Below, piece after piece: positions 43,831-60,919 of a stretch of 64,000 nt of DNA. The stretch spans positions 96,001 through 160,000 of the IMG/VR virus record IMGVR_UViG_3300025141_016305; one strand, written 5' to 3'. The stretch's first letter is position 1. The number at the start of each line of letters is the position of its first letter. The notes under the pieces are model-generated. The model saw only the letters and a list, made by a program, of their open reading frames with translations. It did not search any database and was not told the DNA's origin. A program made the translations under genes and the position numbers. The DNA comes from a virus.

Positions 43831-45092
43831 AAGTCCTTAATCAATTCCCAACTTTGATAGTTTTTTCTATTTTCCCATGAGCCCAGATTTTGTGTTACAT
43901 ACTCAAAAAGTTCGCGCCAATTACTTTCGTACTGCTCAAAACCATAATTCGTTAAAACATGATTTCTTCCAGATTTACCCATCTTTAATCGTTCCTCTTT
44001 TGGAGTATTATAAAAATCCTCTAGTGCTTTTAAAAAGTCCCCTCTTGAAATACGGTCTTCGTAAATATAAGGTACATCTTGAGAGCCGATAACAGCTTTA
44101 GAGGAAGGCTCTATACCAATCCCAAACCAATTACCTTGACCATCAGTCACCTGTTCCTGCAGGCCGCCTGTCATATTTACAATTACTGGAGTTTCACATG
44201 CAAGAGACTCTAAAGTAGAGAGACCGAAACCTTCAGCATCTGATATGTTTATTGTGCAATCCACAAAGGAATAAATTTTTGCTAATTCTTCCGGGGGCAT
44301 TTTCTGTGTTGAAAACATTATTTGATCTGATTTTAGGCCTAGGCGTTCTGCGATTACTTCCAAATCTTGACCATTTGGATCCTTTGGTTCCGTGTGCATT
44401 ATTAGCGCAGCTTTGTCGTGCCCCACTTTATCTAAAAAATCTTTAAACCAAAATATTAAAGTTCCGGATTGCTTTCTTCTTGCATTTCTATTGTTCCAGA
44501 AAAACACCATTTTATTGCTTAAGCTATTTAATTTTTCATTTAAAGTACCCAATTTAGAAGTAGGCAGGGCTTTGAATATTTCAGTATTAACAGTGTGTGG
44601 AATTCTTACACATTTAACGTCCGGGCTGACTTTTCTGACGATTTGATCAGTTACATCACTAATTGTGCAAATAACATCATTTGAATCATAGAAACTTTTA
44701 TTATAATATGGATATGGAAAATTATCCCAAACATGATAATAAACCATGGGGACATTCTTTCTTATTTCATCTTCCAGTTGCCACAACCAAATAAAAAATC
44801 TTGGATCTGTCATAAACCACAAAACGTCTGGCTTAAATTGGTGAAGAACTTGCCTGACAATAGTTGCGTTGCCATACCCATCAACTGGATGGATTATTAG
44901 ATCCTCTCCGTATGGTTCCACCTTAATAGGCCGATAATCATTGTGTTTTAGGGCGCCAGCTAGGCATAGAAACTTATATTCACCCGTCTTTAGTAAAGCC
45001 TCAATCATGTATTTTGTTTGAGTTCCAACCCCGGAAGGTACTAGTGGGCTATCAGCAATAACGAAGATCTTTTTTTTAGGTTTTGTGGTCAT
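43827..45092 (-). CDS. GT4-family glycosyltransferase
   Basis: NRNARRK, SDAEGFGLSTLESLAC.TP; ATG at 45092 overlaps the TGA of the duplicated nuclease end. Confidence 0.9.
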   Translation of the reverse strand: MTTKPKKKIFVIADSPLVPSGVGTQTKYMIEALLKTGEYKFLCLAGALKHNDYRPIKVEPYGEDLIIHPVDGYGNATIVRQVLHQFKPDVLWFMTDPRFFIWLWQLEDEIRKNVPMVYYHVWDNFPYPYYNKSFYDSNDVICTISDVTDQIVRKVSPDVKCVRIPHTVNTEIFKALPTSKLGTLNEKLNSLSNKMVFFWNNRNARRKQSGTLIFWFKDFLDKVGHDKAALIMHTEPKDPNGQDLEVIAERLGLKSDQIMFSTQKMPPEELAKIYSFVDCTINISDAEGFGLSTLESLACETPVIVNMTGGLQEQVTDGQGNWFGIGIEPSSKAVIGSQDVPYIYEDRISRGDFLKALEDFYNTPKEERLKMGKSGRNHVLTNYGFEQYESNWRELFEYVTQNLGSWENRKNYQSWELIKDL

Positions 45093-45104
45093 ATGCAATG
45101 TTTA

Positions 45105-45213
45105 GTTTTATAAAATTTACAATATTTACAAGAAAGTCTATTTTTAATAAAGTTTTTTCTTTCTATATTTATAGCAGCTTTCTCTAACATTTTTAAAGAA
45201 TTTTGTGTTTTTT
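45105..45213. repeat. Direct repeat copy A: duplicated 3' end of the PD-(D/E)XK nuclease gene
   Basis: 106/109 nt identical to 45945-46053 (offset 840 bp). Confidence 0.95.
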
Positions 45214-45248: not shown

Positions 45249-45932
45249 CTATGGAAATTTTACATATATCCAATCGATTGGACAATCCGAATACGGGCGG
45301 TGGTTGCGAAGATCAAAATACTTTCTTAAAACAGTATCATGCTCTGACATCTTCTTGCCTAGCTCTTTAGTGTTCTCGATGGTGCCGAGATTGTCATGAT
45401 AATCTAAATAAAGCTGACGTATTGTTATATTATCAAGAACTTTAGATTCGAACATATGATCCAAAACATCAAATTCTGCTCCTTCGATGTTCATAACAAT
45501 ATAAAGTTCAAACTTATCTTTTGGAAAGTTTTTTAAAATTTCTACAAAATCAACGGCTTCAACATTGTATGATTGAACATATTTCCCCGATCGTTTGCCT
45601 CTGTGTGTCGAGTTTGAACCTTTCCCAAAATCATGAAATTCTACAGTCCCATCAGCATTCCACACTGCCGCATTATATAGACGCGTCTTTGCGCGTGTGT
45701 TAGGTTCTAGATAAGACAACTCTTTTTCTATATCAAAATCTTTTAAAGCTTCAAATCCCAGGATTTGATCGAAAAAATCACCAAGTTGTTCTGGTTTTGT
45801 CGGCAGACCATTTGGACGATTGAGGGTACATTCGTGGCGACCCCATGGGGCGATGTGATGAAAATATGAGGCGCCTTTGGTATACCACCCGCAAATGATT
45901 AATACTTTTTTTCTTTTTGTTTTCAAAATCAC
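45249..45932 (-). CDS. FkbM-like methyltransferase inserted between the direct repeats
   Basis: GFEA, NAAVW..DG, VEAVDF, MNIEGAEFDVL; GTG start overlaps the nuclease TGA. Confidence 0.65.
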   Translation of the reverse strand: MILKTKRKKVLIICGWYTKGASYFHHIAPWGRHECTLNRPNGLPTKPEQLGDFFDQILGFEALKDFDIEKELSYLEPNTRAKTRLYNAAVWNADGTVEFHDFGKGSNSTHRGKRSGKYVQSYNVEAVDFVEILKNFPKDKFELYIVMNIEGAEFDVLDHMFESKVLDNITIRQLYLDYHDNLGTIENTKELGKKMSEHDTVLRKYFDLRNHRPYSDCPIDWIYVKFP

Positions 45933-46702
45933 GTACAGTATTCTGTTTTATAAAATTTACAATATTTGCAAGAGAGCCTATTTTTAATAAAGTTTTTTCT
46001 TTCTATATTTATAGCAGCTTTCTCTAACATTTTTAAAGAATTTTGTGTTTTTTTCTTTCCGGCAGTAACTCTATATATTTCAACATTATCTTTTTTTGCA
46101 GTTCTTTTTAGTAAAGCGAAGTGTACTTCTATATTTTTAGGATCAATATTATGTTTTTTGGAAAAATAATTCTTATAATACACTAACTGATATGTTGTCA
46201 TTGGAGCTGATTTTCTTCTACTATCCCAACCCCAGGAGCATGTTTTCCAATCAATAATGTGGTATTTACCATCAGATGTCTTTAAGACCAAATCAATAAA
46301 GCCTTTAAATTTTCTACCACAAGACTCCACTTCATCTATATCTTCTAAAATCTCTTCTTCAACAGAAACAACAGCATAATCTCCAAAAACCTTTTTTAAT
46401 TCTGGAAGTATAAGATTTGAAAGCAATTTACTTTGTATTTTCATTTCTCTTATCAATTTTTGGTTCAGGTCGCAATCTAAAATTGATAGTTCTTCTTCAA
46501 ACTTTTTTAGAAAAAAGCCGTATTTATCTTCTATGTCCTTATTTACGATATTTTCACAAAGATAATGTATAGCTGTGCCAAAGGCGGTATATTCATTACC
46601 AGAAAAATAAGGTAATTTATCGATATGAATTAATTTATGTCTGTATGGACACTCTGTCCAGTTTTTCAATTCTGAAAAACTTATTCTTTTTATTTCTTTC
46701 AC
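45929..46702 (-). CDS. PD-(D/E)XK nuclease (AddB/Cas4-like, with Fe-S cysteines)
   Basis: ISFSEL...CPY, GTAIH, KGFIDLV...IIDWKT, QL..Y, C-terminal CKYC...C. Confidence 0.9.
   Translation of the reverse strand: MKEIKRISFSELKNWTECPYRHKLIHIDKLPYFSGNEYTAFGTAIHYLCENIVNKDIEDKYGFFLKKFEEELSILDCDLNQKLIREMKIQSKLLSNLILPELKKVFGDYAVVSVEEEILEDIDEVESCGRKFKGFIDLVLKTSDGKYHIIDWKTCSWGWDSRRKSAPMTTYQLVYYKNYFSKKHNIDPKNIEVHFALLKRTAKKDNVEIYRVTAGKKKTQNSLKMLEKAAINIERKNFIKNRLSCKYCKFYKTEYCT
45945..46053. repeat. Direct repeat copy B (within the intact nuclease gene)
   Basis: Pairs with 45105-45213. Confidence 0.95.
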
Positions 46703-51114: not shown

Positions 51115-51291
51115 CTAATCTCTCTGAGATTTCAATATTAAAGCTCTCAATTCTTTCAATTCTTTTATTGCTGTCATAGAATTTTTGCGTACGCGGCGGC
51201 CGGCTGAAACATTCCCGTCCTCAGATTTTTCTGCGTCCAGTGCAGAACTCTGCAATATATCAATAATTTCTGCTAATTTTTCGTTAATCAT
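51115..51291 (-). CDS. Hc1-family histone H1-like protein (58 aa), missing from the ORF track
   Basis: AAGGAG Shine-Dalgarno; MINEKLAEIIDILQSSALDAEKSEDGNVSAGRRVRKNSMTAIKELKELRALILKSQRD carries the D.EK...GN.SAG.R.RK signature. Confidence 0.8.
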   Translation of the reverse strand: MINEKLAEIIDILQSSALDAEKSEDGNVSAGRRVRKNSMTAIKELKELRALILKSQRD

Positions 51292-51649
51292 GACTTTCTC
51301 CTTCTATTCTGTTGTAATCGTCACTATATCTAATTATATCCTCTTCCTGAAAAGTTTCCCCTGTCTGGACTTCTACAAATATTAAACACTGATTTTTGTT
51401 TGTATTTTCGATTCTATGTTTTGTTCCTTTGGGTATGCTTATGATGCTACCGTATTTTACTGGACTCTTCTTGTCATCGATGGTAACTTCTCCATAACCT
51501 GAGACAACTACCCAAATTTCATTTCTCTTTTTATGAGATTGATAGCTGATTCTATGACTAGGATTAATAATTATTCTTTTTAATTTATATTGAAGCTCAT
51601 CCAAAAGTACTTCATAAGTTCCCCACGGTCGATGAATATGATTTGGCAT
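51284..51649 (-). CDS. Mannose-6-phosphate isomerase type II cupin domain protein
   Basis: HRPWGTYEVL, SYQSH..R.E.W, HRIEN, EVQTG..F.EEDIIRY.DDY. Confidence 0.9.
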   Translation of the reverse strand: MPNHIHRPWGTYEVLLDELQYKLKRIIINPSHRISYQSHKKRNEIWVVVSGYGEVTIDDKKSPVKYGSIISIPKGTKHRIENTNKNQCLIFVEVQTGETFQEEDIIRYSDDYNRIEGESHD

Positions 51650-51671: not shown

Positions 51672-51748
51672 TGGTGGGCCTCCGCGGACTTGAACCGCGA
51701 ACCTGCCGGTTATGAGCCGGATGCTCTAACCTATTGAGCTAGAGGCCC
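51672..51748 (-). tRNA. tRNA-Ile2 (anticodon CAT, lysidine substrate)
   Basis: GGGCCTC...TCCGG-CTCATAA-CCGGC...GGTTCAAGTCC...GAGGCCC-ACCA. Has C4:G69 and C5:G68, lacks initiator features, and sits next to tilS. Confidence 0.9.
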
Positions 51749-51769: not shown

Positions 51770-52372
51770 TTACTTATAAATTTCAATTAATTTTTTTCTA
51801 ATTGTTGTCCTCAGCCCGGGATTGACCACTAATACTTGAGGTAAAATATTTATTCTTGTATGATTTCTCATAAAATTTAAATGAGAATTAGAAGGGTCTT
51901 GAATCCAAGAAACTTTTTTTTTAATTGCATAATCTTTTATCGTTTTTTTATTTGTCATCAAAAACGGTCTAAAAATATTCTCACCTCTTTTATAGGGTAT
52001 TAGACGGCCATGGCCATGCAAACTTGACATAATCCAAGTTTCTACGCAATCATCGAGGTGATGACAAGTAATAATAAACCTACTACCAAGATTGTTGAGG
52101 AAATCATATCTTTCGTCTCTCCAAAACTCTTCTAAAGAACGCTTGCCTTTAACTCCATTGACCCTACCAATAATTAGTTCTAGTTTATTCTCATTTGCAT
52201 AGTTTTCAACAAATTCTTGAGCTTTTTGCGAATGATTCGTGTCATGATTAAAGTAAGCTAATTTTATTCTTCTTTTTCCCTGCTTGAGAAAATGAGCGAA
52301 AACCATCGAATCAATGCCGCCAGAACATGCAATAGTTACATTTCTAGGGATTTTTCCAATTATACGTATCAT
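51770..52372 (-). CDS. tilS: tRNA(Ile)-lysidine synthetase, minimal (catalytic domain only)
   Basis: PP-loop CSGGIDS, RDERY, CHHLDD..ET, RPFL, DPSN....RN..R; 200 aa. Confidence 0.92.
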   Translation of the reverse strand: MIRIIGKIPRNVTIACSGGIDSMVFAHFLKQGKRRIKLAYFNHDTNHSQKAQEFVENYANENKLELIIGRVNGVKGKRSLEEFWRDERYDFLNNLGSRFIITCHHLDDCVETWIMSSLHGHGRLIPYKRGENIFRPFLMTNKKTIKDYAIKKKVSWIQDPSNSHLNFMRNHTRINILPQVLVVNPGLRTTIRKKLIEIYK

Positions 52373-52379
52373 ACTTTAT

Positions 52380-52408
52380 ATGATATAAGATTGCTTTAAA
52401 AAAATCAA
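52380..52408 (-). promoter_or_regulatory. Sigma70-type promoter for tilS-tRNA: TTGATT-N17-TATCAT
   Basis: -35 at 52403-52408, -10 at 52380-52385, 7 nt from the tilS ATG. Confidence 0.55.
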
Positions 52409-52623
52409 GCTTTTCTTTTGTCTGCGTGTTCTTTTCCTTTTTTCAACCATTCATGAGTTGCGTCAAGATTTAAGTGTTTTGGAATCTCGACCATAGGCAA
52501 AAATCCATGAACCAAGAAAAAAGCAGATCGGTATAAAAAACCAAGTCCCAAAGATCCAGCAAACTTAAGATGAGAGATATAAGTTTCATTATTTTCCTTA
52601 AGGTGCTTCATATTATTAAACAT
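52405..52623 (-). CDS. Small conserved hypothetical protein (DUF6356-like)
   Basis: HLKENNETY.SHL.FA...VHG.LP pattern; true start may be the ATG at 52611. Confidence 0.65.
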   Translation of the reverse strand: MFNNMKHLKENNETYISHLKFAGSLGLGFLYRSAFFLVHGFLPMVEIPKHLNLDATHEWLKKGKEHADKRKA

Positions 52624-52650
52624 CTCCCAACAAGAGAAAAGTTGGTGGAG
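52609..52650 (-). repeat. tmRNA-3'-end/promoter repeat, copy C (degenerate)
   Basis: 16-bp exact match AGAAAAGTTGGTGGAG (52635-52650) to 53672-53687, followed on the minus strand by GGGAGATGTTTA...ATG. Confidence 0.8.
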
Positions 52651-52662
52651 AGGGTGGGTTTC

Positions 52663-53649
52663 TTACCAGGTAGAGAGAGCAGACCGCTTCCAAGTATTTG
52701 TCGCGACACAAACATAGACATAGTTTGTATCCCAGCAAATCATCCCGGCTGTGCCTGTGGCTGTGGCGCTAGCTGGAGTTTGCGAATCTCTGAGTCTTAT
52801 CGCGTCTGCGTCGATATCCAACACTTCTGTCGGAGAGGTTGTGCCAATACCGACCTTTGGCGCGCCATAAGCATCATATTTAAATGTCATAACATCTATA
52901 GGAGTACCGGTTGGGGCTTGTTGAATTACAAGATTGTTTGAATCATTGTGCAAAGCCCAATCTACAAATCCGTGCCTATCGTTTTGGAGGACAATCCAAT
53001 TTTCACCATCGTTTCGGGAATGGACCGACAATATTCCGTTACCATAGTTGTTGAATGAGTTGATCGACACTGTTTCACCAAACGTATGTGTAGTTCCATC
53101 TTCAGAGGTTATATGAAGACTAGATTCGGTACCATCTAGTTCTTGAGAACTCCACAAAGCAACCTGACCATCGGTAGGAGCATATACCTCTTTAACGGAT
53201 ATCGAATCAATTGAAAAAGCGGTGGAAGAACCTATTGAGCTTATCTCTAGAGACGTGCCGCCGGCCTTTATCAGTTGGGTATATGTATTTGCGCCGTTCC
53301 CACCAATGTATGTTGGCGAAGTACTTGGCGAAACATTGCCAAGCTTCACCATCATATTTGAAGCAGTTGTTACGTTGCTGATTGTGAATTGAATTAAGTA
53401 CAAGGTACCAGATGATACCCCCGACAATGTTTGGGTTAAAGCGCTGTACGTGTAACCAGAACCGGCGGACTTAGTTAATTTTCCGGAGTCATAAGCCCAA
53501 TCAGTCCCTAACGACCAACTGCTAGCATCACTATCAAAAGTCCCATTTGTGACCAGTTCGGTACCTAAATCGGTTGTACCAAGCTTTATACTTTTTGTAA
53601 TTGCTTCTGACCAACCTATTTGTTCTACATCTAGTTTTGCTCTAGCCAT
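52663..53649 (-). CDS. Tail-fibre/receptor-binding-like protein with carbohydrate-binding-like module
   Basis: ELVTNGTFD...W...IDSISVKE module, KVGIGTTSP repeat, C-terminal GMICWDTNYVYVCVATNTWKR; late-promoter motif upstream. Confidence 0.7.
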   Translation of the reverse strand: MARAKLDVEQIGWSEAITKSIKLGTTDLGTELVTNGTFDSDASSWSLGTDWAYDSGKLTKSAGSGYTYSALTQTLSGVSSGTLYLIQFTISNVTTASNMMVKLGNVSPSTSPTYIGGNGANTYTQLIKAGGTSLEISSIGSSTAFSIDSISVKEVYAPTDGQVALWSSQELDGTESSLHITSEDGTTHTFGETVSINSFNNYGNGILSVHSRNDGENWIVLQNDRHGFVDWALHNDSNNLVIQQAPTGTPIDVMTFKYDAYGAPKVGIGTTSPTEVLDIDADAIRLRDSQTPASATATGTAGMICWDTNYVYVCVATNTWKRSALSTW

Positions 53650-53653
53650 ATTT

Positions 53654-53661
53654 TAATTAGT
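53654..53661 (-). promoter_or_regulatory. Putative late promoter ACTAATTA-N4-ATG
   Basis: Fixed 4-nt spacing to the ATG at 53649. Confidence 0.6.
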
Positions 53662-53679
53662 CTCCAATATTAGAAAAGT

Positions 53680-53989
<310 letters not shown>

Positions 53990-54085
53990 TTAACAGCAAC
54001 CACTCTTGCAAGTGCAACACCCGCAACAGCAGCAGCAATGTTTTGAATTAAATAAATTAACCAATCTATGCAATAAACCTTTCAT
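53990..54085 (-). CDS. 31-aa Cys-rich micropeptide MKGLLHRLVNLFNSKHCCCCCGCCTCKSGCC, missing from the ORF track
   Basis: AAGGGGG Shine-Dalgarno-like sequence before the ATG; 10 Cys in the last 15 residues using mixed TGC/TGT codons; stop abuts the tmRNA 5' end. Confidence 0.65.
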   Translation of the reverse strand: MKGLLHRLVNLFNSKHCCCCCGCCTCKSGCC

Positions 54086-54108
54086 GATAATTACCCCCTT
54101 TTAAGTAA

Positions 54109-54978
54109 TTACCACTCTTCTGGAAAATTAGTCTTAAGAAAATTTAGTGCTCTCTCTTTTTGAGCTTGAGTTTCCCAGGAATATTCTTCGTCTCCTGTTG
54201 TTCTGGGTATTATGTGCTCTACTTTTGAATGGGGATTAAAATCTAGCTTTAAACTTTCATCTTTTCGCACCCTATAAGACCATTCTATGTCATCTCCATA
54301 ATAATGAAGCAAATCTTCGTTAAGTGGATACTTTTCCCATGCGGCTTTTTTACCTACAGTATAATTCCCGTCAAAATATTGATGTCTAGTAAAGGATTTT
54401 TGATCATATGGTAACAACATCCTCTTTGGTAGTGTCGGATGATCCCACAAAATCCAGTCCCTATATCTTTCCCCAGAAATTGTATGTTTCACATTCCAAC
54501 AAAAATCCCAATCATATCCAAATTTATTAAAACCATTGAACCAGTCTTTATCAAATTTATAATAATCATGAAAAATAACCACATTCTCATATTTTGCATT
54601 TTGCCAAATAAGATTCTTCTTTTTGGTTGTCCAACCACTCTTAATACCCGGGTGTTTTCTTTTATTTATATCTAACTTCTTTACAACATATTCTTCGGAT
54701 TTTTCATCTTTTATAGAGAGTCCGTTTCTTAGTTTTAAGAAACTGTCGTCTTTAATCCAATCTGTTTGATCGTCAAAAGGGATATGTTTAACATCTCCAA
54801 AAGCATGTAGGCGGTATGCATTGCGGCCATTTTTTGGATACGGACCTCCAACTATAATGATTTCATATTCCGGAATATTCAAATTTCTTATTGAGTCCAA
54901 TATCGTTAATATCTTATCTCTCCAAGCTAAATGATTTTCATTTTCGCTAGCTACCGTTGGAAAACCAAATGTCCACAT
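54109..54978 (-). CDS. GT-A fold glycosyltransferase-like protein
   Basis: YEIIIVGG, KKN....AKYENVVIFHDY, DDIEWS; GGAGA Shine-Dalgarno. Confidence 0.65.
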   Translation of the reverse strand: MWTFGFPTVASENENHLAWRDKILTILDSIRNLNIPEYEIIIVGGPYPKNGRNAYRLHAFGDVKHIPFDDQTDWIKDDSFLKLRNGLSIKDEKSEEYVVKKLDINKRKHPGIKSGWTTKKKNLIWQNAKYENVVIFHDYYKFDKDWFNGFNKFGYDWDFCWNVKHTISGERYRDWILWDHPTLPKRMLLPYDQKSFTRHQYFDGNYTVGKKAAWEKYPLNEDLLHYYGDDIEWSYRVRKDESLKLDFNPHSKVEHIIPRTTGDEEYSWETQAQKERALNFLKTNFPEEW

Positions 54979-54990
54979 AAACTTTATCTC

Positions 54991-55347
54991 CTATTTGCTC
55001 ACTAAGCGTTTATTATAATTAATTGTTATGATGCATTGCTGCAGCGGGTCGTCGTAATCTAAAATCGACGCATTTATATTTTTGTCATCAATAAATATAT
55101 CATACTCAGGTTTGCCAACCATAAATTTATGATATTTTACTCCCCATTTTTTTAATTGATTTTTAGTAAATTCGTACCAATCTTTTTTGGTAATCGTACC
55201 CCTAGCGGTCCAATACACGATTTCATGGCCGTTTTCATACAGTTTGTTTATCTTTTCTATTCTATCTTTTAGCGGTCTAGAATTTTCATAATTTAAATCT
55301 AATTGGCGCGTACATATAGTACCATCAATATCAACAAAAATTTTCAT
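54991..55347 (-). CDS. Small HAD-family phosphatase (paralog of 23495-23800)
   Basis: FVDIDGTI, WTARG, KPEYDIFIDDK. Confidence 0.82.
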   Translation of the reverse strand: MKIFVDIDGTICTRQLDLNYENSRPLKDRIEKINKLYENGHEIVYWTARGTITKKDWYEFTKNQLKKWGVKYHKFMVGKPEYDIFIDDKNINASILDYDDPLQQCIITINYNKRLVSK

Positions 55348-55350
55348 TTT

Positions 55351-56295
55351 TCAACTTTCAACTTCACAATATGGATCTTTATTATCCAATATATTTACTG
55401 CTGTGGTACATGCTTTTCTTCTCATTTCTTCAAAAGACTGCTCAGAATAAAACGATGTATGAGGATTAATGATTACGCGGTTACTATAATAACCGCTAAG
55501 CCACTTATCTAAAAAAGAACACCTAAGTGGGGGTTCCGTTTTTAAAACATCCAAATAAACATTTGAAATTTCTTTAGAATCTAGTGCCTTTTCTAAAGAT
55601 TTATAATCTTCAATTAAATTACCTCTTGCAGTATTCACTATTGTAGACCCTTTTTTCATATTTTTTAAAAATTCTTTATTTATCATACCAACTGTTTCAT
55701 TGTTACATGGTACGTGAATTGAAATAAAGTCTGAAGTTTTTAACAAATCATTTAAAATGTTAACTCTTTTGCATTCCAAGACCTTTTCGTATCCTTGGGA
55801 AACATATGGATCGTAAAATAAAACATCAAAACCGAAAGACTTACATAAACGGATTAACACACTACCGATTCGGCCAGCGCCTATAACTCCTACTTTTATT
55901 AAGTTGGCTCTTTGTATGTTCTTGTTTGGCAATTGCCATTTTTCAGATAAATAGTTTTGTTTAGATAAACAATTATATTCATATATATTTCTATATTTTG
56001 CAAAAATAAAAGCGGCGGCTGATTGTGCGACCTCATGAACTCCATAATCTGGTATTATACAGACTTTTATTCCTCTTTTTTGAGCTTCTTTTACATCTAC
56101 ATTATCATATCCCACACCATATCTAACCACAGCTCTTAACGACTTGAATTTATCAAAAAAAACATTATTTATTTTTTCATTCCAAGCTAGATAAACAGTT
56201 GCATCATAGTTTTCCCTACTAATCTCGTTACCTAAAATCTCTTTTTCTATATCAGTGATTTCAATATCATTGGATATACACACTCTACGCATCAA
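55351..56295 (-). CDS. D-isomer-specific 2-hydroxyacid dehydrogenase
   Basis: RYGVGYDNVD, GVIGAGRIG, VNTARG, LDV...EP, PHTSFYS. Confidence 0.92.
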   Translation of the reverse strand: MMRRVCISNDIEITDIEKEILGNEISRENYDATVYLAWNEKINNVFFDKFKSLRAVVRYGVGYDNVDVKEAQKRGIKVCIIPDYGVHEVAQSAAAFIFAKYRNIYEYNCLSKQNYLSEKWQLPNKNIQRANLIKVGVIGAGRIGSVLIRLCKSFGFDVLFYDPYVSQGYEKVLECKRVNILNDLLKTSDFISIHVPCNNETVGMINKEFLKNMKKGSTIVNTARGNLIEDYKSLEKALDSKEISNVYLDVLKTEPPLRCSFLDKWLSGYYSNRVIINPHTSFYSEQSFEEMRRKACTTAVNILDNKDPYCEVES

Positions 56296-56987
56296 ATGCC
56301 TCTGTTGTTTAAAATCAGTTTATAGGAATCCATTAATACAGTTGTATCCATCCCCAAAGCAAAAAAAGAAAAATCATCTTCGTATTTCTCTACATCCAAA
56401 GAATTTCTAACCAGATGAATCGCTGCCTTGTTTTTCGGAATAAGTAATTTATATTTTTTTATTGCATTCAAAAAATTTTCATTTTCAAAATCCCCAACGC
56501 AACCATAACTGGCAGATAGATCATACATCCCTATAAGAAAATGATCAATATCAAAATTGATCATTTCATCCAGAATGTCAATCCCCTCTTTTGATTCAAT
56601 CATAGCAATTATTTTTGGGTTTGCTTTATCTAAATCCCTAGTTCCCCACATGTTTTCGCGAACTAATCCCTGGCCGCGTTGGCCGCCATGGCGAGGATAT
56701 TTACACATTTTAATAATTTTTTGACAATATTGAATACTATCTACAGTAGAAAAAATAGCATAATCTATACCACTATCTAAACAGGTTCGAACCAAATGAT
56801 CATCAGCATATGTAAATCTTACACCACATTTTTTACCACACAATTTTACAGTCTGTATACATGAAAACAAACTTTCATTAGAAAAATTTGAATGTTCTGC
56901 ATCCAGGATTACTCCTTCACAATCTGCATTACAAAGAATCTCACTAATAATGGTACTGGGTATCTGTTGCCAGGAAAACTTTCTCAC
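56292..56987 (-). CDS. HpcH/HpaI-family class II aldolase
   Basis: LDAEH, KYP..GQRG, AMIES.EG, IGMYDLSAS; GTGA-coupled start at 56987. Confidence 0.88.
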   Translation of the reverse strand: MRKFSWQQIPSTIISEILCNADCEGVILDAEHSNFSNESLFSCIQTVKLCGKKCGVRFTYADDHLVRTCLDSGIDYAIFSTVDSIQYCQKIIKMCKYPRHGGQRGQGLVRENMWGTRDLDKANPKIIAMIESKEGIDILDEMINFDIDHFLIGMYDLSASYGCVGDFENENFLNAIKKYKLLIPKNKAAIHLVRNSLDVEKYEDDFSFFALGMDTTVLMDSYKLILNNRGI

Positions 56988-57652
56988 CCCAGCACTCCGG
57001 GGGCCATCAAACATGCCATTTCAAAATCATCCCAATAATCTATTTCCACTGCTTCTTTTTTCGAAACTCTAAATTTAAATGGATTAGTTCCCATCCAGTA
57101 TTTAACTTCTCTTTGTTTTTTTACACTAGCTGTATATGCTGCTCCGGTTATTTGATCCCAAGATGGTAATTCCTGTGTAAAATTATGCCAGGGCCCTGGA
57201 TTAAAATTGATGCATCTTCCCTTTTCGTCCAATAAAAAATCGTTATAAGGTACAGTTGTTACAACACTATCTTTCGTATTTTTATCAATCACTTCCTTTT
57301 CATAAGCTTCTATAATTTGGTCATATCTAGTAAAAAACGGATTTGTTACCATCGCCCATGTAATAATATCCTCTTCAGAAAAATGTGATATAATATCTAA
57401 AATATATTCATGAAGGCGTGCGTCATTACACATGTAGTCGCTTCTCGAAATAAAACTTATGTTATTCTGCTCAGCTATAAGCCTTGCTTTAGAACTGTTA
57501 CTTGCCACTACGATATCGTCGACTTTGGTGCATGATTTAAGTTGTTCTATTTTAAGATTAAGTAAAGACTTGTCCTTATGAAAGTTTCTAAAATTCTTAT
57601 TTTTAACCCTTGTTGAACCCTCTCTTACAGGAATTACTGCAATGTGTTTCAT
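56984..57652 (-). CDS. Acylneuraminate/KDO-type cytidylyltransferase
   Basis: IPVREGSTRVKNKN, TNPF, TQELP, EID..DDF. Confidence 0.85.
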   Translation of the reverse strand: MKHIAVIPVREGSTRVKNKNFRNFHKDKSLLNLKIEQLKSCTKVDDIVVASNSSKARLIAEQNNISFISRSDYMCNDARLHEYILDIISHFSEEDIITWAMVTNPFFTRYDQIIEAYEKEVIDKNTKDSVVTTVPYNDFLLDEKGRCINFNPGPWHNFTQELPSWDQITGAAYTASVKKQREVKYWMGTNPFKFRVSKKEAVEIDYWDDFEMACLMAPGVLG

Positions 57653-58680
57653 GTTATATCCAACTTTTGGTAGAGAGATATTTGATCCACAACTCTACTA
57701 GCATACCCGAATTCATTGTCATACCACAAAACCAATTTTAAAACATTTCCCTTAGTTTCTGTCCAGCGATGATCAATATGGCAAGAATAAGGAGACTTAA
57801 TAAAATCTGTTGAAACCAGAGGTTCAATATCGTTTTTAAAAATTTTACAAGTTTGTTCACTCTCCGCATCTAAAAAGATTTCTTTAATTTCTTTCTTATC
57901 AACGGTTTTCTCTAAAATAATTGTAAGGTCCGCTGATCCAACAATGGCATGGGGTGTTCTATAGGAAAAAACCAACAACTTATCCTCAATACCTGTTAAA
58001 ACTCGGTTTGTTGCAACTAAAGCTGTCGTCCATTTGGGAATAATATTATTAGAACTGGAGCGGCCTAGGGCATAGTTATGATAAGTTTGTTTCGGATTAG
58101 ATTGATATTTTGATTGTCCATCTAAAACGTTCTGATAATTTAGCCATGGATGAACAGTAGTGATGCTGCCACCAGAGATACCAAAAGAATTATCTAATCT
58201 CTTTAGTACCGGGGCGAGAGCCGTAGTATCGCAAATACTACATGAAACCACCTTATGACATTTATCTGCAAACTTTTCGTTAACACCCAAAACTAATTCA
58301 AAATCAGAAATTGAACTTGAGTTAGTTATATAAACCCTTTTTACTCCCCACTTTTGTATAACCTGAGGTGCTGAACTTATATTTCTTCCTATTCCAGATG
58401 CATCAATAACATAATCTGTGTTGCTCCAATCTACGTTTTCTATTTTCGATTCACAAAAAACTTTAATCTCATGACCATTTAAAACTAGTTTATCGTTGGC
58501 GGTGCATTCGACATGGCCCTGAAAGCGACCATATAAAGAATCATACTTTATTGTATATTCAATATTCCTAACATCAAAATTTATATCATTGATAGTGGTA
58601 ATTTGAAAGTTATTATTATTGGCCAAGATTCTTAATATTTGGCGGCCGATGCGGCCAACGCCGTTGATACCAATTTTCAT
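57649..58680 (-). CDS. GAPDH/erythrose-4-phosphate dehydrogenase-family protein (divergent active site)
   Basis: IGINGVGRIGR, KYDSLYG, SICDTTALAP, TTVH, WYDNEFGYASRVVD. Confidence 0.88.
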   Translation of the reverse strand: MKIGINGVGRIGRQILRILANNNNFQITTINDINFDVRNIEYTIKYDSLYGRFQGHVECTANDKLVLNGHEIKVFCESKIENVDWSNTDYVIDASGIGRNISSAPQVIQKWGVKRVYITNSSSISDFELVLGVNEKFADKCHKVVSCSICDTTALAPVLKRLDNSFGISGGSITTVHPWLNYQNVLDGQSKYQSNPKQTYHNYALGRSSSNNIIPKWTTALVATNRVLTGIEDKLLVFSYRTPHAIVGSADLTIILEKTVDKKEIKEIFLDAESEQTCKIFKNDIEPLVSTDFIKSPYSCHIDHRWTETKGNVLKLVLWYDNEFGYASRVVDQISLYQKLDIT

Positions 58681-58795
58681 TTTTCTTAAAAAACCTTACT
58701 AGCTATGGATGTAGATCTCTATACCTTTATAGCATAAAACACTTTTTTTTTTAAGAATATAGATTTTTGTATATTTATTTATTTTTATTGCTTCT

Positions 58796-59989
58796 CTAGC
58801 GTGATTTAAGTGTTTTGATGTGTTCTAGGGCAGTTTGTAGCAGGTCTTTATTTAATTGAAAAATTTGTCTCTCCCGGTTAGGGCCGCCTATTTTAGTTTT
58901 GACAAGGCCTAATTCTTTCAATACATCCACCATTCGGGCAGCCCGATTATAACCTATACTTAATTTTTTTTGCAAGAACCCATGGATTCCTCCAAGGGTG
59001 GGTGGAGATTGTTTTTTAGGATACTTAATAAGAACATGTAATGCATCAAGAAATCGAGGGTCTTGTATAGCTACTCGAATCAAATCATCGCTAAGTAAAG
59101 TGTCTCTGGCTTTTGGGCTTCTTCTAGGAGGGTTTTCATATGCTCTAGGAATCTCATCTGGAATGAAATCCAAAGTGTCGTCTTTTCCAATATTTGCATC
59201 TCTTTCTTTTACTTTCTGTCTGACAAAATTTTGTGCATCCAAAAATCTTTCATGAACTGTTTTTGGCAATTCTTTCGCTACACTGTCAGTCATCCACTCG
59301 CTAGGTTTTCCTGCTTGGTCTAATAGACCCATTTGAGGTGTTGCAACTCGCTTGATCGGAGCTGATGGGAGAGGATCACTCATGCTACTTGGCAAAGGTG
59401 GAAAATCTACTTGTGTTTTCTTTTTTCCTAAACTAGATAATTTATCCAAAGACGTTGGTTCGTCTCCAATAGGAGGCCTCTGGTAAATCTGCCTATCTTT
59501 AACTTTTGATCCGGATTTTCTGATTGCTTCTCTGGTTTGTTTTTCGACAACATCTGTAACCTTATCTACCTGGTCGACATAATAAAATATTTTTTCGGCT
59601 ACTTCGTTTTGTGGTGCTCTCACTAAAGCATCGGATGATTTTAAAGATTTGCTAGCTTTTTTTAATTTTAGGGCACCTTTTAGCGCTCGACCTGCTTGGC
59701 CAAGCAAAGGAAGGGCCGCGGCCAGTGATATAGCTAGATTGGCAGCTGCAAAAATGTTGCGATACTTCTCAAATGCTTCGATGGCAGGAGGGATGTCCGG
59801 ATAAGCTGATATCCCTGTTGGATCGAAAAGTCCTATAACCGTGCGTAAGTTTTCAAAATCTTCTTCTGATACTTTAACGTTTCCGAGATCTGGATCTGGG
59901 GAAGTGATCACCCGGGCGGTGTCTGGATCTGTTATATCTATTTCTCTTAGATACTTTCTCCAGCTTTCCATTATGAGTTGATGTTTCAT
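58796..59989 (-). CDS. Putative head-packaged protein with C-terminal FtsK-gamma winged-helix domain
   Basis: N-terminal MKHQLIMESWRKYLRE; C-terminal DPRF.DA...LQKKLSIGYNRAARMVDVL.E.GLV. Confidence 0.75.
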   Translation of the reverse strand: MKHQLIMESWRKYLREIDITDPDTARVITSPDPDLGNVKVSEEDFENLRTVIGLFDPTGISAYPDIPPAIEAFEKYRNIFAAANLAISLAAALPLLGQAGRALKGALKLKKASKSLKSSDALVRAPQNEVAEKIFYYVDQVDKVTDVVEKQTREAIRKSGSKVKDRQIYQRPPIGDEPTSLDKLSSLGKKKTQVDFPPLPSSMSDPLPSAPIKRVATPQMGLLDQAGKPSEWMTDSVAKELPKTVHERFLDAQNFVRQKVKERDANIGKDDTLDFIPDEIPRAYENPPRRSPKARDTLLSDDLIRVAIQDPRFLDALHVLIKYPKKQSPPTLGGIHGFLQKKLSIGYNRAARMVDVLKELGLVKTKIGGPNRERQIFQLNKDLLQTALEHIKTLKSR

Positions 59990-60000
59990 GATATATTCTC

Positions 60001-60276
60001 TTATTCAAGCTGGCCTAAATCTCTGGCAGCATTTCCAGATATATATTTTACAGCTGAATTCATGTAATCTCCTGCTTTTGTTATTTTTGTTTCAAGCCAT
60101 TCTGGTAAATCATCTTTATCTTCTATGAGGCTTAAAAGAATTTTTGTATCTGCCAATAGATGAGCTAAAGTTGTACGATGCATTCTAGCTTCTTCTTGAT
60201 TCTGCGCATTTGGCATCGATGATACCTTGGCATCCGTACAGCCACAACTTTCTTGTATACTAATTTTAATTTTCAT
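60001..60276 (-). CDS. Conserved phage hypothetical protein (DDLPEW..KIT.A.DY motif)
   Basis: 91 aa; late-promoter motif 4 nt upstream. Confidence 0.7.
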   Translation of the reverse strand: MKIKISIQESCGCTDAKVSSMPNAQNQEEARMHRTTLAHLLADTKILLSLIEDKDDLPEWLETKITKAGDYMNSAVKYISGNAARDLGQLE

Positions 60277-60320
60277 ATATTAAATAGTCCCCGATAAGAG
60301 AAAAGCTTGGTGGAGGTGGC
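60274..60320 (-). repeat. tmRNA-3'-end/promoter repeat, copy A (includes ACTATTTA-N4-ATG)
   Basis: 40 of 47 aligned positions identical to 53647-53692. Confidence 0.85.
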
Positions 60321-60337
60321 AGTTCGAGTTCAAATGC

Positions 60338-60919
60338 TTATTGTTTTCGAAAAACATATATACTATCAGGCTCGCCGGGTACCTTCTCTCTGATTATTAG
60401 CTCTTTATTGTTATATGATATTGCCCAGTTCTCTACTCTTTGGCCGCTGTTCGGGTCGAAGAAGTGTAGTTTTCCTTTCTCATCAGCATCAGCTTTAAAA
60501 ATCAATTCGCGGTTACGGCGCTGGCGGTTGATTCTTTTTCGCTGTGAGACTCTGCTGCCGGAAAAAAAACGCAAGTTCCAACGTAGATCTACGCTTGGGG
60601 GCGTAGCTCGTATTGGCTGGCCAGGGTATGGCTTCAAGGGGTTGGTATATGTATGCACCTTGGATCTTTCGTGATCAAGATCCCAGGCCGTGTCTTCGAG
60701 ATCTTTTGCAGCTTGGAGCTGTTCTGCTTGTTGTTTTGCTTCTTTCGCGGAGGCCTCTTTTTTAGCTTTCATTTGATTATGCTTCACCAGCGCCTTCATG
60801 CGGGCCTTATGGATTTTGGATATAGGACGAGGTTCTGGTTCGTCCTCGATATCGGTAGCCAGTGTCGTCTCTATTTCTTCTTCGATTATTCTTAGCAAAT
60901 ATTGTTTTGTGATCTTCAT
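60338..60919 (-). CDS. Putative head-packaged hypothetical protein
   Basis: N-terminal MKITKQYLLRIIEEE leader; late-promoter motif upstream. Confidence 0.65.
   Translation of the reverse strand: MKITKQYLLRIIEEEIETTLATDIEDEPEPRPISKIHKARMKALVKHNQMKAKKEASAKEAKQQAEQLQAAKDLEDTAWDLDHERSKVHTYTNPLKPYPGQPIRATPPSVDLRWNLRFFSGSRVSQRKRINRQRRNRELIFKADADEKGKLHFFDPNSGQRVENWAISYNNKELIIREKVPGEPDSIYVFRKQ

Follow-up and report, generated by a model that had tools for sequence, protein, structure and literature searches.

Remnants of a phage tmRNA 3' end in a variable gene region: a probable site of cassette exchange in marine T4-like phages

Why should the genome of a large phage carry pieces of its own transfer-messenger RNA (tmRNA) gene in front of unrelated genes? 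The question is raised by a 64,000-nt stretch of DNA (the window), bases 96,001-160,000 of the 175,011-bp IMG/VR virus record IMGVR_UViG_3300025141_016305 (hereafter G000), in which the 3' end of the tmRNA gene (ssrA) and two further sites bear the same compound unit, a tmRNA end joined to a spacer and to a start region that closes on an ATG. The G000 record has 38.8% GC, is estimated to be 96% complete and carries nearly all its genes on the minus strand, and its gene content, including a tail sheath, a baseplate wedge protein, a DnaB-type helicase and a RecA/UvsX homologue, fits a phage of a marine T4-like lineage. Accessory-gene exchange in large lytic phages is known in outline, in the form of hyperplastic regions and PeSLs (early-promoter stem-loop elements), from few cultured coliphage and vibriophage pairs. 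Phage tmRNAs are already known, marine myophages included (PMC9004378), and a full-text literature search returned no account of arrays of tmRNA-end remnants in phage genomes. We find that the best explanation for the tmRNA surroundings is a hyperplastic (cassette) region of this lineage; the proposal that the phage's own tmRNA 3' end may serve as a recombination hotspot, loading accessory genes behind a ready-made start region, holds up in comparison with relatives.

A first-pass annotation of the window had described three minus-strand units, each ending at the ATG of a different gene, and we recovered all three where it had placed them: the unit at the tmRNA gene itself (the master unit, core at 53647-53692), copy A (core at 60274-60320) and copy C (core at 52609-52650), which open reading frames (ORFs) of 328, 91 and 68/72 residues, respectively (full extents in Table 1). 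The units share one order, in which the T-loop, 3' T-stem strand, 3' acceptor strand and ACCA of the tmRNA are followed by A-CTTTTCT, about 5 nt, a GGAG-like element, about 11 nt of A/T-rich sequence and the ATG. The tmRNA from which they would derive is a standard member of its family, with tRNA-like domain and tag frame, and scores 127.2 bits against RF00023 (threshold 47 bits). Matches to CCACCAA[N]CTTTTCT number three in the window, all on the minus strand, and the full 175,011-bp genome has no others on either strand, against an expectation of 0; likewise, a whole-genome search with a profile of this phage group's units returned three copies only (E = 1.1e-12 for copy A and 1.5e-10 for copy C). 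Aligned locally to the tmRNA end, copy A (40/47 identical) reached a score of 57 and copy C one of 41, compared to 18-19 ± 2.4 (maximum 30) for shuffled nulls. The similarity of copy C extends upstream to the T-arm position (41 nt, 76%), and the copy A remnant starts with a possible TCGAACT trace of the T-loop, then GCCACCTCCACCAA. Two finer points of the first-pass annotation also stood, namely that copies A and C begin within 20 nt of a stop codon (the measured distances are 17 nt and 12 nt) and that a 16-bp exact repeat brackets the tail-fibre-like 328-residue gene: CTCCACCAACTTTTCT is present on both sides of it, at 52635-52650 and 53672-53687, with 0.03 matches expected, and the stop codon of this gene falls within the full extent of copy C (52609-52667). 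In G000, copies A and C are best read as decayed scars. We also considered the unit as a genome-wide regulatory signal and rejected it, as CTTTTCT...GGRG is found at the three units only and the profile finds no others in 175 kb.

How widespread is this arrangement? Scanning IMG/VR for exact matches to the tmRNA 3' end gave 10 relative records, whose whole tmRNAs are 84-93% identical to that of G000, and 80 contigs from marine metagenomes (Tara, GOS and JGI projects) were retrieved with a group-specific 35-mer; of these contigs, the 38 that extend 2 kb or more beyond the tmRNA were used for the metagenome array counts given below. A megablast search with the 8.1-kb region against 50,697 phage records returned nothing beyond an irrelevant 39-bp match. 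The 10 relatives share a frame (F7-F0-F1-F11-(F19, F22)-tmRNA-[variable]-PP-loop gene-tRNA(CAU)-F17-F8-F2-F18, where F numbers denote gene families), in which the interval from tmRNA to tRNA(CAU) measures 1.9-8.1 kb and the intervening genes are different in each genome. Gene content at the junction downstream of ssrA, whose variability between strains the first-pass annotation had proposed to check, therefore differs in every relative rather than being invariant. On the metagenome contigs, the 282 ORFs located within 7 kb downstream of the tmRNA fell into 119 clusters, 75 of them singletons.

The same annotation had suggested searching the whole genome and relatives for the unit, and this search, which gave three copies in G000, uncovered whole arrays in the relatives. 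Downstream of the tmRNA, G003 has three extra remnants, G001 and G002 have two each (with an additional promoter-only half-unit in G001) and G005 and G009 have one each, and 17/38 metagenome contigs carry 1-4 extra remnants spaced 0.26-1.8 kb apart, the arrays reaching five units at most. Promoter-only half-units without a remnant also head cassettes. In the relatives, no unit was detected on the upstream side of the tmRNA, even at the roughly 23 loci where this side spans 4.7 kb or more, and copy A is the sole unit upstream of a tmRNA among about 33 loci. A direct repeat of the 3' part of the tmRNA stands at the far end of inserted DNA in the case of copy C and of 39 remnants in relatives. 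In 38 of these 39, the tmRNA-like stretch opens within the T-loop or on its 5' border; five or six retain TTCGACTC unchanged, and elsewhere the sequence reads TAGACTC, TAACTC or TAGCTC, forming the stop codon of the preceding ORF. A set of 26 distinct remnants, pre-selected as full length so that decayed copies are under-represented, is 80-99% conserved from ACTCCCGCC through ACTAYTTA and 30-50% conserved immediately upstream. Downstream, the units of relatives often continue for ~45 nt into the start of a common leader-coding sequence (MKLIMENW), and some remnants join other contexts, such as a sigma-70-like promoter, a 'cacacaactg' spacer or directly an ATG.

Other parts of the tmRNA gene are also found displaced. 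Contig L147 (Ga0098035_1022410) bears a second tmRNA-like copy within its array, some 430-920 nt downstream of the tmRNA, with altered acceptor and T-loop and a 79-codon ORF in the pseudoknot region; this copy, which ARAGORN does not call, may be a decaying duplicate, and its presence shows that whole-gene tmRNA duplicates arise in arrays. In G003, a 28-nt remnant of the tmRNA 5' part (L118:9271-9300) is located upstream of F22, about 470 nt before the intact tmRNA, and rearrangements therefore scar the 5' side too.

Comparison of arrays revealed that modules occupy different slots. G003 and G001 are 89% identical from the tmRNA via F10-IscU to the second unit, beyond which they carry different cassettes, re-align over 76 nt at the next unit and diverge again. 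The [unit-F10-IscU-unit] module comes first (slot 1) in G001 and G003, second in L218 and fourth in L153, and another cassette is found in slot 1 in L209 and in at least the third slot in L220. IscA lies directly 3' of the tmRNA in G005 and G010, and after IscU, behind a remnant, in G003; these placements indicate that the remnant travels with its downstream gene.

To what extent is the start region a promoter? The intergenic motif (A)CTATTTA is enriched in G000, with 14/31 minus-strand copies in the 4.6% of the sequence that is intergenic, and it precedes the tail-sheath and baseplate-wedge genes, as well as a helicase and other genes, which makes a reading of ACTAYTTA as late promoter plausible but unproven. 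Among the three units of G000, copy A alone has the enriched ACTATTTA motif, five bases ahead of the ATG; the master unit has the variant ACTAATTA, which is frequent in relatives' units, and in copy C the motif is lost. The motif behind the 'late promoter' that the first-pass annotation had assigned to all three units is therefore present in copy A, only as a variant in the master unit and not at all in copy C. Across the group, most units have their own ACTAYTTA or sigma-70-like motif before the ATG, with promoter roles predicted from the motifs, and TTGACA-N17-TATAAT is present in only a few.

These comparisons suggest a history for the two copies in G000. The tail-fibre-like gene is probably the newest insertion at the tmRNA end, marked by copy C. 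In G006, a homologue of the 68-residue gene (40% identity over 43 residues, E = 2e-7) is located directly 3' of the tmRNA, without the tail-fibre-like gene, and thus copy C plus the 68-residue gene would represent the older tmRNA neighbour in G000; the tail-fibre-like gene would have been inserted between this pair and the tmRNA, together with a fresh tmRNA end. Its 328-residue product matches the C-terminus of PHROG 17312 (tail protein) with its C-terminal 47 residues, and the gene region has 43% GC compared to the genome average of 38.8%. As the protein is 63% identical to one encoded immediately upstream of the G010 tmRNA, and as starts of the MAR(T/K)GI type come after remnants in several metagenome arrays, we regard it as a recurrent mobile member of the arrays. 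Copy A is probably the scar left where a tmRNA copy, since lost, once preceded the F9 gene, the leader-bearing 397-residue protein and the low-GC metabolic block, because content typical of distal arrays (F9, leader protein) follows it and because of the L147 duplicate and the G003 5' remnant. The 193-residue gene preceding copy A occupies the position of F11/F19/F22 and tmRNA in relatives. The first-pass idea that the tmRNA end is a platform for loading genes is therefore supported by the variable junctions, the arrays, the module slots and the G006 arrangement, but copy A, lying upstream, does not conform to a simple downstream platform.

We propose, with a probability of roughly 0.6, that the units constitute a PeSL-like portable homology region at which homologous recombination inserts, deletes and shuffles cassettes. 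The homology would comprise two parts, the last ~20 nt of the tmRNA gene (T-loop to CCA) and the ~30 nt natively next to it (CTTTTCT, TTGGAG and the promoter-like ACTA(Y/A)TTA). During replication or co-infection, UvsX-type machinery of the phage would recombine units by any of three routes, pairing the tmRNA-adjacent unit with a remnant, pairing two remnants, or excising a small circle between two units, with the outcome that whole cassettes would be inserted, deleted or reordered. An insertion beside the tmRNA would push the older module (remnant, start region and gene) further downstream, and the remnants themselves would be passengers or scars that decay unless recombination renews them. 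The repeats and their uniqueness, the arrays of relatives, the variable gene content, the displaced modules and the lack of integrase matches and of RNA structure are direct results, whereas homologous recombination as the enzyme system, the mini-circles, the insertion order and the origin of copy A are the parts of this scheme that we infer.

Several points weigh against homologous recombination as the agent. The left edge lies within a few bases of the T-loop in 38/39 remnants, and tyrosine integrases that target tRNA and tmRNA genes cross over at the T-loop; homologous recombination gives such a uniform edge only via one founder duplication that spread. Remnants attached to unrelated downstream contexts offer only ~20 bp of homology, and the exact identity shared by the three G000 copies is only 14-16 bp, so that these copies may no longer recombine. 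The ends of homology blocks (at least 150 nt long) fall in or near units in 16% of cases versus 4.1% expected from coverage, which speaks for the model, but this enrichment counts related, non-independent sequences and is descriptive. When near-identical genome pairs were searched for a clean unit-bounded indel, breaks were found only at the tmRNA-adjacent unit. Lastly, how copy A arose is reconstructed rather than observed.

The uniform edge would be explained directly by site-specific recombination at the tmRNA T-loop, catalysed by an enzyme acting in trans (a host or satellite integrase, an unrecognised phage recombinase or a T-loop homing nuclease) and leaving the remnants as attR-type scars, of which five or six retain the intact T-loop sequence. 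The placement of all units in relatives downstream of the tmRNA and on the same strand, the attachment of remnants to several different downstream contexts, and the apparent outward displacement of older modules, as in serial tRNA/tmRNA integrations (bioRxiv 10.1101/2020.12.28.424599), agree with such an enzyme. However, profile searches for the tyrosine integrase domain PF00589 returned no match in G000 (96% complete) or in five relatives, the 100%-complete G003 included, with controls positive in 14/14 genomes; the serine recombinase domain PF00239 gave no match in G000, again with positive controls; and no integrase was among the best 25 of 59 families in a Pfam census of the cassette clusters. 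Moreover, the cassettes are single genes of 0.26-1.8 kb, the T-loop part is usually mutated to a stop codon instead of being an exact overlap, and the G003 5' remnant and the whole second copy of L147 attest to breaks beyond the T-loop. None of 185,579 bacterial and archaeal species genomes contains a 26-mer taken across remnant and spacer, and no cellular donor island is seen, which argues that the repeats belong to the phage lineage itself and did not come from host islands. We therefore consider site-specific recombination in trans possible but unlikely. A dedicated capture system of a widespread marine T4-like lineage, in which the T-loop-to-CCA segment would be a true recombination site for a recombinase or nuclease unrecognisable by homology, or for a host enzyme in trans, and would stack single-gene cassettes, many of them leader-tagged and perhaps packaged and injected, seems to us doubtful. 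The tyrosine recombinase that the first-pass annotation proposed to look for elsewhere thus failed to appear in G000 and the five relatives, and its comparison with integrons fares no better: besides the missing tyrosine integrase (six records) and serine recombinase (G000), there is no attC-like hairpin, and the cassettes have their own promoter-like motifs.

Could the CCA-ending copies instead be RNA elements kept by selection, serving as processing or termination signals, or pairing in the manner of an anti-Shine-Dalgarno sequence (CACCUCC) with the downstream GGAG? The 80-99% conservation of full-length remnants across divergent genomes, the complementarity of the unit's CUCCA to UGGAG and the tight packing of stop codon, remnant and next start would all suit such a function, but that conservation comes from matches pre-selected as full length. 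The remnants lack the 5' acceptor and 5' T-stem strands needed by tRNA-type processing enzymes, and ten remnants folded with their flanks gave no stable fold (z-scores -0.6 to +2.5) and no common helix. Orthologous remnants also decay at or above the local rate, as exemplified by G003_10907 and G001_10856, which differ at 4/21 positions within an 89%-identical block; copies A and C are degraded; and promoter-only half-units head cassettes too. The missing strands, the lack of a fold and the 4/21 differences disfavour a function at the RNA level, including the RNA-processing alternative raised by the first-pass annotation, and we find it hard to credit. An origin of the repeats by chance or as an artefact of metagenome assembly is the least credible of all, and we give it next to no weight: the record is a metagenome assembly, in which repeats can seed chimeric joins, and eight contigs break off no more than 50 nt from the tmRNA 3' end, which to us suggests population heterogeneity at that point. 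The alignment scores, however, are far above the shuffled nulls, and the same architecture recurs in dozens of independent assemblies from different projects, with copies that are diverged or decayed, not identical.

Table 1. Features of the tmRNA region of G000 (positions in the window).
Feature	Position	Strand	Remarks
tRNA(CAU) and PP-loop gene (TilS-type, PF01171)	51672-51748 (tRNA); 51770-52372 (PP-loop gene)	-	right border of variable region
68/72-residue membrane-like gene, family F20	52405-52623	-
Copy C	52609-52667	-	decayed tmRNA 3' remnant (T-arm position to CCA), CTTTTCT, Shine-Dalgarno-like GGGAG, ATG of 68/72-residue gene
328-residue tail-fibre-like cassette	52663-53649	-	between master unit and copy C
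Master unit	53647-53699	-	tmRNA T-loop to CCA (ends 53680), A-CTTTTCT, TTGGAG, ACTAATTA promoter-like variant, ATG of 328-residue gene
One-piece tmRNA gene	53680-53989	-	anchor of the system; ARAGORN (tag ANDDIEIFEDFALAA) and Rfam RF00023
Low-GC (30-35%) accessory block	54109-58680	-	between copy A and tmRNA
397-residue protein	58796-59989	-	C-terminal FtsK-gamma domain; N-terminal leader MKHQLIMESWRKYLRE; sole leader-bearing G000 protein
91-residue gene, short F9 member	60001-60276	-	F9 in relatives: distal part of array downstream of tmRNA
Copy A	60274-60327	-	tmRNA 3' remnant, G-CTTTTCT, GGGG, ACTATTTA (60281-60288), ATG of 91-residue gene
193-residue gene	60338-60919	-	ends 17 nt before copy A; own ACTATTTA-N5-ATG start

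The layout of the master unit is also found 3' of the tmRNA in most relatives. At the right border of the variable region, the PP-loop gene lies directly upstream of tRNA(CAU), and this pair is present in the regions of 9/10 relatives; the tRNA, called tRNA-Met(CAU) by ARAGORN, may instead be a tRNA-Ile2 whose CAU anticodon would be converted to lysidine by the phage enzyme. The low-GC block encodes a GAPDH-like protein, a cytidylyltransferase, an HpcH-type aldolase, a 2-hydroxyacid dehydrogenase, a HAD phosphatase and a 289-residue protein of no assigned function. Five of these, located at 54991-58680 on the minus strand (the GAPDH-like protein, a CMP-sugar-type cytidylyltransferase, an HpcH/HpaI aldolase, a D-2-hydroxyacid dehydrogenase and a small HAD phosphatase), look like a horizontally acquired sugar-acid or nucleotide-sugar pathway. 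In IMG/VR, no relative was found for the 289-residue protein, and for the GAPDH-like protein only relatives of at most 35% identity in unrelated contexts; these searches gave no lead to the origin of the low-GC block or of copy A.

A 31-residue ORF with 10 cysteines (...SKHCCCCCGCC.C.SGCC; 53990-54085, minus strand) ends one base before G1 of the tmRNA. It is kept in G001, G003, G007 and G010, in which F22 or F23 separates it from the tmRNA; conserved, and elsewhere apart from the tmRNA, it is therefore a real small gene, which abuts the tmRNA 5' end in G000 only. Relatives have the F11 gene between F1 and the tmRNA; in G000 it (51284-51649, minus strand) comes after tRNA(CAU), a relocation that is a second rearrangement left unexplained by the homologous-recombination model. 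Elsewhere in the window, a 144-nt direct repeat (45070-45213 and 45910-46053, 88% identical, 840 nt spacing) is unrelated to the tmRNA units.

What do the cassettes encode? The Pfam census, carried out on representatives of the 119 clusters and given here for the best 25 of 59 families, lists peptidoglycan-binding, M23, M15, LysM and LamG domains, IscU, IscA, a CysK-type pyridoxal-phosphate (PLP) enzyme, PhoH, ThyX, ClpP and glycosyltransferases. IscU (NifU_N), IscA (Fe-S_biosyn) and the CysK-type PLP enzyme are recurrent in the arrays of L117, L118, L119, L121 and L124, where the IscU and IscA cassettes occur in either order and a tmRNA remnant sometimes splits the pair. A leader of the form (M/H)KLIMExW[RK]x[FY]L.E opens 53/282 ORFs (42/119 clusters) downstream of the tmRNA in relatives and contains I-x-E and L-x-E motifs, like T4 prohead-protease sites; because of this resemblance, the leader-bearing cassette proteins may be targeted to the capsid and injected.

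With a receptor-binding-type tail-fibre gene, peptidoglycan-binding and -cleaving domains, genes for iron-sulphur clusters and cysteine synthesis and dozens of otherwise unrelated, leader-sharing proteins among its cassettes, the locus is a likely site of innovation in host range and counter-defence. The tmRNA fragment, derived from an RNA gene that is universally conserved, provides a natural and easily recognised marker of exchange that recurs in many ocean metagenomes, and from which the order of insertion can be read in the sequence. If the T-loop boundary were to reflect a specific enzyme, a new recombination mechanism would operate on a lytic phage genome, and a dedicated capture system, if real, would be a phage counterpart of the integron for infection-stage effectors.

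Among known systems, the integron resembles the arrays in its ordered single-gene cassettes, recurrent short site and fixed anchor, but differs in having IntI, a hairpin-forming attC and a common Pc promoter, none of which is seen here, where cassettes come with their own promoter-like motif. The T-even internal-protein locus, which Repoila et al. (1994; as cited in PMC3012670) reportedly described as encoding diverse proteins that share only a capsid-targeting leader, is alike in its rows of unrelated small proteins with a shared short N-terminal leader and their own start regions at a variable locus; the leader of the marine phages, however, is unrelated to that of T4, with packaging and cleavage only predicted, and the T-even locus has no tmRNA link. 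Bacterial tRNA/tmRNA islands such as the Prochlorococcus tycheposons (bioRxiv 10.1101/2020.12.28.424599) share direct repeats of the 3' part of the gene flanking the inserts, serial insertions that push older ones outward, integrase-less remnants, partial genes and an edge in the T-loop. They are cellular, however, and mobilised by element-encoded integrases, whereas in our case a T4-like phage with no integrase or stub found supplies the target gene, the cassettes are single genes, and the repeat extends ~30 nt past the gene into a promoter-like region.

PeSL-mediated shuffling is the closest documented mechanism. In T4-type phages, PeSL repeats mediate modular shuffling and give rise to mini-circles that are able to reinsert, T4 recombination needs less than 50 bp of homology, and PeSLs were shown experimentally to work by homologous recombination and mini-circles without a dedicated recombinase (Arbiol et al. 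2010, PMC2839356; Comeau et al. 2014, PMC4122927). A PeSL combines a terminator stem-loop with a sigma-70 early promoter, whereas the units described here lack a stem-loop and mostly carry ACTAYTTA, probably a late motif; their upstream half comes from a structural RNA gene, on which a one-sided array is anchored; and mini-circles, demonstrated for PeSLs, are only predicted for our units. Nonetheless, both consist of regulatory modules of ~50-80 bp that recur on either side of small, non-essential ORFs within hyperplastic regions, and in both the repeats coincide with the boundaries of indels and replacements between related phages.

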